From an uncultured virus (IMG/VR IMGVR_UViG_3300006802_016159) (taxonomy: Duplodnaviria; Heunggongvirae; Uroviricota; Caudoviricetes): 20,000 nt of DNA. The notes below the pieces were generated by a model. That model searched no databases, had not been told where the DNA came from, and saw nothing but the letters and a program-made list of their open reading frames with translations. The stretch is from the IMG/VR virus record IMGVR_UViG_3300006802_016159; one strand, 5' to 3'. Positions 5,216-7,008 of this stretch are shown here, in pieces (positions within the stretch are counted from its first letter, which is position 1; every line of letters starts with the position of its first letter). A program made the translations under genes and the position numbers.

Positions 5216-5502
5216 CCGTTTCTTTTGTCGCGGATTAAAAGACGTACTTGGTCGGTAGCGTCAGGCAAAAGCTCCAAATAGACCCCCGTTTCTTTTGTCG
5301 CGGGTAAACAGACGTACTTGGTCAGTAACGTCAGGCAGAAGTGAACAATAGACCCCCGTTTCTTGTGTCGCGGGTAAACAGACGTACTTGGTCAGTAGCG
5401 TCAGGCAGAAGTGGGCTAATAGACCCCCAGTTCTTCTTTTCTGGGTGAAAAAGAGTAGTCTGAATGAGCTACCTCTAAAGAGAAGAAAGCTATATCATTC
5501 AG
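5216..5502 (+). repeat. Upstream tandem array of four ~70-nt structured units (starts 5216, 5286, 5356, 5427)
   Basis: Units 1-3 are near-identical (CCGTTTCTTTTGTCGCGGGTAAACAGACGTACTTGGTCAGTARCGTCAGGCAGAAG-N6/7-ATAGACCC). Unit 4 has a divergent sequence but keeps all four pairings. Confidence 0.92.
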
Positions 5503-5522
5503 TCCTTCGGGATTTTAAATTT

Positions 5523-6827
5523 ATGAAAACAAAAATAAAACTAACGTCGGCAGTTAAAATTCATGTCCAGCCAACGGACGAATTTAACAAGTATCTATCA
5601 GACCTCATTGATTTTCAAAGAGAAGTTTCTCAGAAGATTCATTCCCTGATCCTTGAAAAGAGGATAACACAAATTGAATCCTTTGCCATTGTTTTTGATG
5701 GAAAGAGAGTGAAGGACGCCTCTGAATTAAGGTCTTTGGATTGGATGAAGGACATAATGAAGAAGTTCAATCTCACAGAAGATAATTCGAATAAAAGTGC
5801 GCTCCGTTCAATATACTGGGAGGTCTTTAGAAGGTATCGTTCTTTCCTCCAAAGGAATAAACAGTTGTCTTTGGAAAAAAGAATTCCCAAGCGTCCGATT
5901 GATATTCGAGACAAAGCAATTAATTTAAAAGAAGGATTAATTGAACTTCACGAAGATATGGATAAGGTTTCTTTCATTAGTTTGGAAAAGAAAGCCTCTA
6001 AAATAGAGGTAGAAATTGATCCAAATAAATCATATTTAAAAAGAGCAGGCTCTATTAATTTCAAAAAGGGAATCAAAAAAGCGGGCGGCATTATTAATAT
6101 TCGTAAGAGCGAATTGGTTGTAATCGTTGAAAGGGAAGAGGAAGTAGAATCACCAGTTCAAATGTTGGGATTTGACATTAATAAAAGTGATAAAAACTTT
6201 TTGGTATTTTCTTCTCCAATCAATAGAAGCTGTTTCCATGCCAAGCCAGAACACATTTCCAAGATGGAACAGACTTTAAGGAAGATTAATAAAGAAATCA
6301 AATCAAATGAAATCAACAGCCGACAAAGATCAAAGCTACGATCAAAATGGAAAAAGCAACACAAGAAATTAAAAAGAGAATTAACAAATTTTCTTATTCC
6401 GTTACTGGATCAGATTGATTTTTCTAAAACTGGACTGGCGATTGATACTCCATCGACCGGACAAACAAATGGATCGTTTGGTCAAGACAAGATTAAAGAA
6501 ATTTGTATTGATTATTGTAAGAAGAATGACATTTATTATTATTTGATTCCCACGCCCTACACTTCTCAAAGATGTTTTAAATGTGGAGAAATATCAAAAA
6601 CAAATAGAAAGAAGAATAAATATTCTTGTTCATGTGGATACAAAAACCACGCCGATTTGAATGGAGCAAAGAACGTAAAAGTCTTTGGAGATTATCTGCT
6701 TAAAATAAATCATTCTTTAAGTGAATCTCTCAATAGAAATTACAAGAGGGAAACTACTGAAGTATTGAGAAATCAATTTGATTTCAAAAGAAATCCCATT
6801 TCCTCTGTCGTGGTGTTAAAAACTTAG
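5523..6827 (+). CDS. tnpB: TnpB/Cas12f-like RuvC protein (434 aa), putatively RNA-guided
   Basis: RuvC-I LGFDINK, RuvC-II LAIDT, zinc ribbon YTSQRCFKCG...YSCSCG and RuvC-III HADLNGAKNV. The ATG at 5523 follows the array and a UUCG hairpin (5503-5512). Confidence 0.85.
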   Translation: MKTKIKLTSAVKIHVQPTDEFNKYLSDLIDFQREVSQKIHSLILEKRITQIESFAIVFDGKRVKDASELRSLDWMKDIMKKFNLTEDNSNKSALRSIYWEVFRRYRSFLQRNKQLSLEKRIPKRPIDIRDKAINLKEGLIELHEDMDKVSFISLEKKASKIEVEIDPNKSYLKRAGSINFKKGIKKAGGIINIRKSELVVIVEREEEVESPVQMLGFDINKSDKNFLVFSSPINRSCFHAKPEHISKMEQTLRKINKEIKSNEINSRQRSKLRSKWKKQHKKLKRELTNFLIPLLDQIDFSKTGLAIDTPSTGQTNGSFGQDKIKEICIDYCKKNDIYYYLIPTPYTSQRCFKCGEISKTNRKKNKYSCSCGYKNHADLNGAKNVKVFGDYLLKINHSLSESLNRNYKRETTEVLRNQFDFKRNPISSVVVLKT

Positions 6828-7008
6828 TTGGTTACTATAGTTAAACAGGGGCTAAGAAAAAACCTCCGTTTCTTTTGTCGCGGGTAAACAGACGTAGCTG
6901 GTCACTAACGTCAGGCAGAAGTTATCTATAGACCTCCGTTTCTTTTGTTGCGGACGAAAAAAGTAATTTGATAGAGTTAGCTTTAAACAAAAGTGATTTA
7001 TATCTATC
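6796..7008 (+). repeat. Downstream tandem array of three ~70-nt structured units (starts 6796, 6866, 6936)
   Basis: The unit at 6866 is nearly identical to the upstream units. The units at 6796 (overlapping the tnpB stop) and 6936 are divergent but keep the pairings, at an exact 70-nt period. Confidence 0.9.

Follow-up and report, generated by a model that had tools for sequence, protein, structure and literature searches.

What role do structured RNA repeats play when they stand on both sides of a single viral gene and even run into its coding end? This question is raised by the window analysed here, the whole 20,000-nucleotide (nt) stretch of DNA from an uncultured virus of the Caudoviricetes (IMG/VR record IMGVR_UViG_3300006802_016159). 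Two blocks of repeat units, four at positions 5216-5502 upstream and three at 6796-7008 downstream, bracket one open reading frame (ORF) of 434 codons on the same strand (5523-6827). The fifth unit overlaps the last 32 nt of this ORF (6796-6827), which encodes a 434-residue protein of the TnpB/Cas12f fold, referred to here as P0001. An earlier note on this DNA had read each unit as a double pseudoknot and had proposed ribozyme, exonuclease-resistant RNA (xrRNA) or type III antitoxin-like roles, without mentioning the gene that the blocks flank and overlap; the proposed roles find no support in our analysis. The flanked gene points to a partner RNA of the omega-RNA or single guide RNA (sgRNA) type and not to an xrRNA or a free-standing ribozyme. 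The window and related loci display a strand-specific, covarying and conserved double pseudoknot that keeps a fixed relation to a gene of the TnpB/Cas12f fold and occurs both in arrays and as single genes. From these comparisons the units are likely to be a partner RNA of P0001. As an explanation of the whole locus, we lean towards the cognate non-coding RNA of a TnpB/Cas12f-like protein, in the form of a miniaturised omega-RNA/sgRNA-type scaffold that has been duplicated into an array.

The double pseudoknot of the repeat units

The seven units, all on the + strand, are 70-76 nt long and start at 5216, 5286, 5356, 5427, 6796, 6866 and 6936. Four helices can be read in each of them. P1 is a short hairpin, and P2 pairs the P1 loop with a strand about 40 nt downstream; P3 is a hairpin with a one-base bulge on its 3′ strand, and P4 pairs the P3 loop with the last bases of the unit. 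In unit 2 (5286-5355), taken as the reference, P1 joins 5286-5289 to 5300-5303, P2 joins 5292-5299 to 5334-5341, P3 joins 5311-5317 to 5325-5332 with the bulge at 5328, and P4 joins 5320-5323 to 5351-5354. An A-rich junction after P1, the conserved bulged P3 stem and an A-rich motif just before the 3′ strand of P4 are common to the units. Between the 3′ strand of P2 and this A-rich motif lies a linker of 5-7 nt (5342-5347 in unit 2), which differs in nearly every unit.

Units 1 (5216-5285, linker 5272-5277) and 6 (6866-6935, linker 6922-6927) are canonical and score 86.6 and 89.2 bits with covariance model R1, compared with 91.4 bits for unit 2. Unit 3 (5356-5426, 71 nt, linker 5412-5418) carries a single G-G mismatch in P2. 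The other three units are divergent, with all four helices remade in different letters: unit 4 (5427-5502; R1 56.5 bits, descriptor score 58) has a P4 of eight pairs, unit 7 (6936-7008; R1 62 bits) has a P4 of six pairs, and unit 5 (6796-6865; R1 68.9 bits) is the one that begins inside the ORF. The pairings listed in the earlier note were all present on reading the sequence, including the change of P1 from CCG/CGG to CCA/TGG in units 5427 and 6796, the variants of P2, P3 and P4, and the lone mismatch in unit 5356. The P1 loop measures 12 nt in 7/7 units, and 10 nt when P1 is extended by a fourth pair (U.G, A-U or G-C).

We assembled alignment A3 from 14 units, seven from the window, six from locus L007 and one from L011, the latter two being other viral contigs. 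Pairing is seen in 95.0% of its 321 cells and in 84.1 ± 1.0% after shuffling (0/500 shuffles as high); sliding the partners by 1-3 columns lowers it to 41.5-46.8%. Both sides change in 14 of the 23 pairs, compared with 4.7 ± 1.4 in shuffles (0/500). G.U pairs are common on the + strand, with U.G in 11/13 lettered cells at pair 4-15 and in 7/14 at pair 13-55. A second sub-family is represented by alignment A9, which comprises 32 units taken from matches at E ≤ 1 across 57 sources to model R2, itself built from 17 units on P2 and P3 only. Here 95.1% of 778 cells pair, against 69.1 ± 1.2% in shuffles (0/500), and 22/26 pairs change on both sides, many rows being orthologs and the cells non-independent events. 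P4 and P1, which are absent from R2, still pair in 100% and 90.3% of the cells, respectively, and P4 changes on both sides in 6/6 pairs.

Permutations in which one helix was left out of unit selection were performed on 23 loci after removal of the near-duplicates L019, L020, L022, L024, L028, L030, L033 and L037. When units were picked on P1, P2 and P3, the complementarity of the P3 loop to the unit's own tail was 13.1-14.1, compared with 10.2-10.4 to the tails of other units (0/2000), supporting P4. P2 complementarity was likewise better with the own partner when units were picked on P3 and P4 (0/2000). A P1 of at least 4 bp accompanied 37/51 real hits and 37/124 shuffled hits. A descriptor scan of the gene flanks at a score of at least 50 gave 35 hits for the gene strand, compared with 4 for its complement and an average of 3.1 in shuffles, near-duplicate loci included. 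Two further alignments were set aside: the global MAFFT alignment A5 of 36 hand-picked units, in which P1, P2 and P4 were too poorly aligned to count, and A6, with seven units of L012, in which MAFFT shifted the P4 register between rows.

Compensatory changes that keep the double pseudoknot, as well as selection on a + strand RNA rather than a DNA minisatellite, had been claimed before from the window alone. A3, A9 and the leave-one-helix-out permutations agree with the former, and covariation and permutation together bear out the latter; homologs, in which covariation might have been missing, do covary. We regard the RNA structure as real with near certainty. No already described Rfam family matches it. 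In Rfam 15, no unit gave a hit at E ≤ 10 in window positions 4800-7500, at the gathering score across the whole window, or at E ≤ 0.1 in 13 related loci; the look-alikes at 7015-7050 are weak and of terminator type only. Tandem Repeats Finder reported the first block alone (5216-5435, period 70, 3.1 copies, 88% matches). The blocks do not form a CRISPR array in the sense of short repeats with unique spacers of similar length, as the whole 70-nt period is conserved and no spacer-sized variable part is found in it.

The TnpB-like protein and its relatives

P0001 matches the Pfam TNB domain PF07282 (Cas12f1-like) at 46.2 bits, over a cut-off of 26.3, and OrfB_IS605 below threshold. A profile of its family searched against the PDB matched Cas12f, LaTranC, Cas12m, CasPhi and TnpB chains, the LaTranC structures 9jfq and 9jfo being among the matches. 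An AlphaFold2 model built with 74 family sequences has a mean predicted local distance difference test score (pLDDT) of 93.5 and a predicted template modelling score (pTM) of 0.87. Foldseek with the full-length model returned OsCas12f, AsCas12f, SpCas12f1, LaTranC, ISDra2 and ISFba1 TnpB, and Fanzor2 as best matches, with E values of 2e-13 to 6e-11 and TM-scores of about 0.4. The score with NCBIfam guided_TnpB, 50.4 bits, lies under the curated cut-off of 100; we therefore use the name TnpB-like, which best suits this divergent branch. Only TnpB/transposase families were found in Pfam, PHROG and NCBIfam, and no match to a ToxN/AbiF/CptN-type endoribonuclease was found there.

Residues of the RuvC site were compared in alignment A8 of 74 family members. 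The RuvC-I aspartate D218 is present in 74/74, and Asp308, at a strand end, is equally invariant. The RuvC-II glutamate is absent throughout the family; in hhalign, the glutamate of ordinary TnpB falls opposite a gap. Its place is taken by Asp308 and a nearly invariant GQ[D/E] motif at residues 320-322, of which the last is D or E in 67/74. The RuvC-III position is occupied by Asp in 35, His in 25 and Gln in 14 members, and by Asp378 in the window protein. Among the zinc-ribbon cysteines, Cys351, Cys369 and Cys371 are invariant and Cys354 is kept in 73/74. The alignment suggests a catalytic site that is rearranged, and inactive in part of the family. The rearrangement may be of the kind described in passages of the 2023 PNAS survey of TnpB proteins (PMC10691335), in which some rearranged branches are virus-specific.

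A word-indexed protein search gave few close relatives (20 hits), and the first scan of viral contigs with the window protein alone gave one weak 20-residue match, L001. The branch is nonetheless sizeable, its clusters numbering 170 at E ≤ 1e-30 and 1671 at E ≤ 1e-10, so far in viral and metagenomic contigs. Relatives are encoded by 22 viral loci and a few metagenome loci. The metagenome scan was flooded by ordinary TnpBs through the YTSQRCxxCG pattern, and about the first 8 of its 80 kept loci were useful. An exact-pattern scan of viral contigs for the P1/P2 region gave eight loci, of which L006 and L007, on one contig, are real and the rest are chance single matches.

Units of the same architecture stand on the gene strand beside relatives of 23-56% protein identity. 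In L007, whose protein is 53% identical to P0001, a promoter and two units precede the gene, four units and a terminator follow it, and the units belong to the sequence family of the window. L011 has a promoter, one unit and a terminator, followed by a second promoter and the gene. The same strand order in other sequences is found in L012-L018, L023-L025, L029, L034, L038 and L039, with protein identities of 23-36%. In L012, no two of the seven units have the same P4; compensation is seen in most of them, and one pairs only partially by hand reading. The units are always on the gene strand: all 32 R2 hits at E ≤ 1 lie on it, all in family loci, with 0 in the 31 generic TnpB loci L040-L070. In 13 loci (the window, L007, L012, L013, L014, L016, L023, L024, L025, L028, L034, L038 and L039), the start of the first downstream unit falls in the interval from 32 nt ahead of the final stop-codon base to 8 nt past it. 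Adjacent units are 0-2 nt apart, and past the last one there is a T run, a small hairpin or a complete terminator. Repeats that are at most candidate units occur only downstream of the gene in L021, L026 and L027.

Some units stand apart from the gene. In L016 (region 4279-4395), a lone unit lies behind a consensus TTGACA-17-TATAAT promoter and is followed by genes for tRNA-Leu and transfer-messenger RNA (tmRNA) in the region 4773-5214. In L012 (region 1623-1905), the array starts 1-3 nt after a tmRNA gene, depending on the end called by the tool, and in L017 (region 1628-1863) a unit starts 1 nt after a tRNA-Arg gene. Orphan units are found about 1.9 kb upstream of the main array in L114 (2352-2426), L118 (2353-2426) and L025 (425-498), with R2 E values of 1e-10 to 1e-11; the L118 orphan has the linker of one main-array unit. 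By their placement, units can apparently be separate small-RNA genes.

The variable linker, the swapped cassette and the mini-arrays

Linkers are distinct in 14/14 units of A3 and in 24/26 of A9, counted on the 26 best rows after the six weakest hits were dropped. Their mean pairwise identity is 0.30, whereas the bases on either side reach 0.90-0.93 in A9 and 0.86-0.91 in A3. L112 and L113, which are 92% identical overall and carry the same TnpB-like allele, differ at 16/22 linker bases and at 6/263 other unit bases, two of the latter being a compensatory pair; at four-fold sites they differ by 25%, 8.5% and 4.4% across the three genes next to the module, with 33% for another gene that lies further downstream. 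Across the 10 pairs formed by five variants, 5-10 of 11 linker bases differ and flanking third-codon positions differ by 0.11-0.47; L122, which has no upstream gene, was omitted from this test. Within metagenome contigs from four sequencing runs, variants of the window units include changes at linker positions 5273-5276 and 5343 and at bulge position 5328. Loose contig ends were also seen at window positions 5236, 5285 and 5342-5363. These freshwater and estuary samples contain several further modules of the family, among them L007-like gene ends and terminators, and related modules thus share one habitat. Related variants of the units were present in the contigs of these runs, as were repeat-to-repeat joints, but a joined form lacking the module was not seen.

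A phage group made up of L112-L122 and L023-L025 allows the module to be compared between close relatives. The flanking genes are mostly 85-100% identical (a DnaB-like gene is 76% in three loci), whereas TnpB-like proteins of different alleles are about 35% identical. Along the DNA, identity falls where the gene begins and is regained at the far end of the last downstream unit. Two or three upstream units sit in the conserved flank, and the downstream units change with the protein allele. To judge from these identities, the TnpB-like gene and its downstream units are a cassette swapped between near-identical flanks. All 11 loci found via the upstream gene of the L023 group carry a TnpB-like gene. 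A conserved gene of 138-147 amino acids lies right after the last unit in L112-L122 and L023 (1728-2144), with its start codon 8-14 nt past the unit end.

Three relatives have one scaffold followed by short repeats, with four copies at a spacing of 31 nt in L018 (3983-4090), six at 26 nt in L031 (3756-3900) and eleven at 19-29 nt in L035 (1650-1880). The repeat, about 12 nt long and separated by spacers of 7-20 nt, combines the A-rich motif with the 3′ strand of P4, and by eye it can pair with the P3 loop of the scaffold in L018 and L035. On this reading of the repeats, the mini-arrays look like a scaffold split into a part resembling a trans-activating CRISPR RNA (tracr-like) and a short-repeat array. 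The segments between the L031 repeats are alike and are therefore not acquired spacers; the short-repeat pattern had no further copy in the L031 record. All three arrays are CRISPR-like in appearance, with no adaptation genes in view. The TranC papers reportedly describe a guide-RNA scaffold split into a tracr-like part and a short-repeat array. L018, L031 and L035, where the last scaffold element is repeated, resemble the TranC intermediates. The window differs from them in having complete fused units only, and the relatives in repeats of about 12 nt with spacers of 7-20 nt.

The units as a probable partner RNA and the competing readings

Our strongest argument for a partner RNA is the combination of the protein fold, the overlap with the 3′ end of the gene and the topology of P1 and P2. 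An omega-RNA overlaps its gene in this way, as does unit 5, which starts at 6796 before the ORF ends at 6827. The 5′ stem-loop pseudoknot of an omega-RNA is also present, the 5′ strand of P2 lying in the P1 loop and covarying with its partner. According to PMC10097598, the stretch from -6 to -2 of the ISDra2 omega-RNA, immediately ahead of the guide, pairs with positions -102 to -106. The latter are flanked by the two halves of stem 1 (-116 to -111 and -91 to -86), and such a pseudoknot is stated there to be common to Cas12 guide RNAs. The match of P1/P2 to ISDra2 is a likeness of topology, not proven homology. The units share the partner-protein fold and the 5′ stem-loop/pre-guide pseudoknot with the omega-RNA (or right-end RNA, reRNA) of the IS200/IS605 TnpB of ISDra2 and with the Cas12f sgRNA. 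They differ from them in their 65-75 nt, compared with a 116-nt scaffold, in a second pseudoknot, P4, formed by the segment at the guide position in place of a 16-nt guide, and in their tandem arrangement on both sides of the gene without an Rfam match.

In the mechanism that we propose, the whole block of units 1-4, gene and units 5-7 would be transcribed on the + strand up to a strong intrinsic terminator at 7015-7050, with a 10-pair stem at 7015-7041 and a T run. The terminator scan found no terminator between the stop codon of the ribonucleotide reductase (RNR) gene (5178-5180) and unit 1, and the first one after unit 7; transcription in the window probably reads through from the RNR gene. 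Each unit would be a scaffold of 65-75 nt that folds on its own, and head-to-tail duplication would have given rise to an ‘omega-RNA array’. We infer that the protein binds each unit as a scaffold, that it probably processes the precursor to release the units, and that any guiding would take place in this complex. By analogy with ISDra2, a guide would be expected after the 3′ strand of P2; that place is taken instead by the linker, the A-rich motif and a P4 strand folding back to the P3 loop. The linker might confer specificity on the ribonucleoprotein, as a very short element that P4 keeps in position. Alternatively, an ancestral guide may have turned into a structural tail, leaving a guide-less complex that would serve regulation or inhibition.

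That the variable linker acts as a guide is a tentative proposition, more doubtful than plausible from the sequences. A bolder version of it, which we hold to be somewhat less likely again, takes the arrays as micro-guide libraries in which each scaffold presents one programmable element of 5-7 nt (7-20 nt in the relatives with mini-arrays), a segment anchored by P4 much as a repeat might pair with an anti-repeat. The guide geometry would then be nearer to that of IS110 bridge RNAs or TIGR arrays, as these are said to be built, than to that of Cas12.

Arrays of this kind are already known. Tandem omega-RNA arrays and CRISPR-like arrays with long repeats, beside Cas12f1, V-U40-43 and sigma-linked TnpBs, appear in passages of PMC10691335, and are alike in having scaffolds of more than 60 bp in tandem beside a Cas12f/TnpB-type gene without adaptation genes. 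As they are presented there, they have sharp repeat boundaries followed by guides, whereas the window has 5-7 variable nucleotides inside the unit followed by conserved, paired sequence. The arrays described here differ in the compact double pseudoknot into which their units fold, in having no normal guide, in a variable segment internal to the unit, in their presence on both sides of the gene and in the viral setting. A literature search gave no description of this RNA; its scope did not take in the supplements of PMC10691335 or the 2021 Science OMEGA paper, which may bear on it, and those supplements may name this protein branch.

Several observations weigh against a cognate guide RNA. Neither pseudoknot strand is followed by a guide of usual length (about 16 nt or more): P4 gives way within 0-2 nt to the next unit, or else to a T run or terminator. 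Unlike a free guide, the sequence at the guide position, made up of the A-rich motif and the P4 strand, is conserved and paired; a guide of 5-7 nt would be very short, no target was found, and no patches co-varying with the linkers were found in four related genomes. L119 and L121, which are 99.6% identical, share identical linkers, and 6/10 non-independent pairs exceed the higher flanking third-codon rate at P < 0.05, the linker rate tests all coming from one phage group. From the identical linkers and the rate comparisons, the linker appears to evolve at least as fast as neutral sites, and several-fold faster in the closest informative pairs, without switch-like hypermutation; it may simply be unconstrained. 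Recognition, if any, would be generic because the upstream units are conserved while the protein allele that follows is about 35% identical. DNA cleavage, as read from the alignment, cannot be a function common to the family, because the RuvC-III Asp is replaced in 39/74 members.

The structural evidence has its own limits. Nested-only minimum free energy folding gives no thermodynamic signal, with z-scores of -1.04 to +0.94 for the seven units, so the support for the structure is comparative, not energetic. R1 matches only its 14 training units, the next best hit being at E 0.012, and R2 finds no unit in the window, L007, L012, L016, L017, L038 or L039. As the two models do not cross sub-families, the link between the sub-families rests on shared topology, position and protein homology. 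The descriptor has a background of 0.46 per kb in generic TnpB loci, which are probably richer in G+C, compared with 1.30 per kb beside family genes; elsewhere in family loci its density is 0.21 per kb.

The guide-less arrangement brings to mind type III toxin-antitoxin (TA) RNAs such as ToxI and CptI, which are tandem pseudoknot repeats beside the gene of the protein that they bind, are phage-related and have a terminator between array and gene. Like these, the units are tandem pseudoknot RNA repeats beside a protein gene in a phage setting. They could be antitoxin-like inhibitors that hold the nuclease inactive, so that loss of the RNA would free a toxic nuclease; P4 in the guide channel would serve as a built-in pseudo-target, and an array and attenuator before the gene would keep the RNA in excess. 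In the window, four upstream units are followed by only a 3-bp hairpin (5503-5512) and the T run TTTT (5513-5516), and clear terminators or T runs are found in L011, L017 and L018, with a hairpin or T run before the gene also in L023. This short element of the window, read by eye and continued by a purine-rich stretch up to the ATG (5503-5522), was not called by the terminator scan and may act as a weak attenuator and ribosome site. The absence of a usable guide and the exchange of a phage-borne locus as a cassette would also suit an antitoxin, and TnpB as a toxin has been proposed for an RHH (ribbon-helix-helix)/MazE-linked clade in passages of PMC10691335. However, the protein has a TnpB fold and belongs to another family than the ToxN/AbiF/CptN-type RNases, the units are about twice as long as type III repeats, and arrays are found on either side of the gene. 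Units also stand behind the gene and extend across its stop codon, and the repeats of L021, L026 and L027, of whatever status, are downstream only. Replacement of the RuvC-III Asp in 39/74 argues against a toxic nuclease as the common function, and the variable linker would be left unexplained. We consider such an inhibitor unlikely.

A purely cis-acting RNA is less likely still. The units might be attenuators, with P4 and a T run as an unusual terminator, blocks to exonucleases in the manner of an xrRNA, or operators for autoregulation. They do bracket the mRNA on both sides, and a T run comes right after P4 in the last upstream unit of L012, L016, L017, L018, L023 and L038. But internal units abut without T runs, stand-alone units have their own promoter or terminator (L011, L016), and other units adjoin tRNA/tmRNA genes or sit about 1.9 kb from the gene (L114, L118, L025), as separate small RNAs would.

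The units could also be independent small RNAs of a phage tRNA/tmRNA island, acting as decoys or regulators on host RNA, with the TnpB-like gene as a selfish neighbour that uses the landing site. This is very unlikely, although tmRNA or tRNA genes stand beside the module in L012, L015, L016 and L017 and a tmRNA gene lies 3 kb downstream in the window, orphan units occur away from the gene, and upstream units are kept while the gene cassette changes. Against it, every unit found sits in a locus that was retrieved via the protein, 13 loci have their first downstream unit fixed at the stop codon, and the downstream units change with the protein allele.

Double-pseudoknot self-cleaving ribozymes, such as the hepatitis delta virus (HDV)-like and twister classes, are of similar size, have two pseudoknots and occur in arrays, and several ribozyme classes are found in phage-linked arrays. 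A ribozyme array that cuts a precursor into unit-length RNAs would likewise consist of compact double pseudoknots placed head to tail, 0-2 nt apart, with conserved unpaired A-rich junctions. Yet the strand order of HDV-like and twister ribozymes differs from that of the units, the conserved bases are mostly in the P3 stem, and no ribozyme family of Rfam 15 gave a match, whether in the window (E ≤ 10) or in 13 other loci (E ≤ 0.1), which leaves self-cleavage highly improbable. Least probable of all is a DNA-level element, that is, transposon ends or recombination sites folding as single-stranded DNA: the ends of IS200/IS605 elements, from which the gene family derives, do fold as DNA hairpins and the cassette boundary coincides with the end of the last unit, but the units are strand-specific (35 vs 4 descriptor hits by strand) with many G.U pairs, the arrays lie inside transcription units with promoters and terminators, and no TnpA gene was noticed in the loci read, no search aimed at TnpA having been made.

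The remainder of the window looks like a phage genome, with genes for the ribonucleotide reductase, a virion structural protein, MazG, HNH proteins and an extracytoplasmic function (ECF) sigma factor, and the tmRNA gene (10071-10448, 170.6 bits). A short hydrophobic ORF (7074-7196) comes right after the terminator, and the module is placed as if inserted between the RNR stop codon and the original terminator of the RNR gene. The ECF-type sigma factor gene (15643-16254) is 9 kb downstream; passages of PMC10691335 describe sigma-linked TnpBs from Bacteroidota, and the two genes of the window are non-adjacent. A phage database search for an empty site or close relatives gave three weak hits of about 140 nt, to huge uncultured phages, and a downstream ATPase-like protein had no relatives in viral contigs.

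The RNA family described here is absent from Rfam 15 and can be defined by two covariance models and many compensatory changes. Cassette swaps between near-identical flanks, as seen in one phage group for the gene and its downstream units, are typical of loci of conflict between phages or between phage and host. No RNA-guided enzymes are more compact than TnpB and Cas12f, and the length of their guide RNAs restricts what they can be used for; the partner RNA proposed here is half as large as usual, takes a double-pseudoknot fold and comes in arrays that lack ordinary guides. If the arrays were micro-guide libraries, they would amount to a phage-borne RNA-guided system with CRISPR-like guide diversity and no adaptation genes, built on the smallest known scaffold for this protein fold, with a guide both internal and short. 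Guiding by the short segment would mean that this fold can be programmed in a new way; a guide-less complex would illustrate how an RNA-guided nuclease becomes an RNA-regulated or RNA-inhibited protein.

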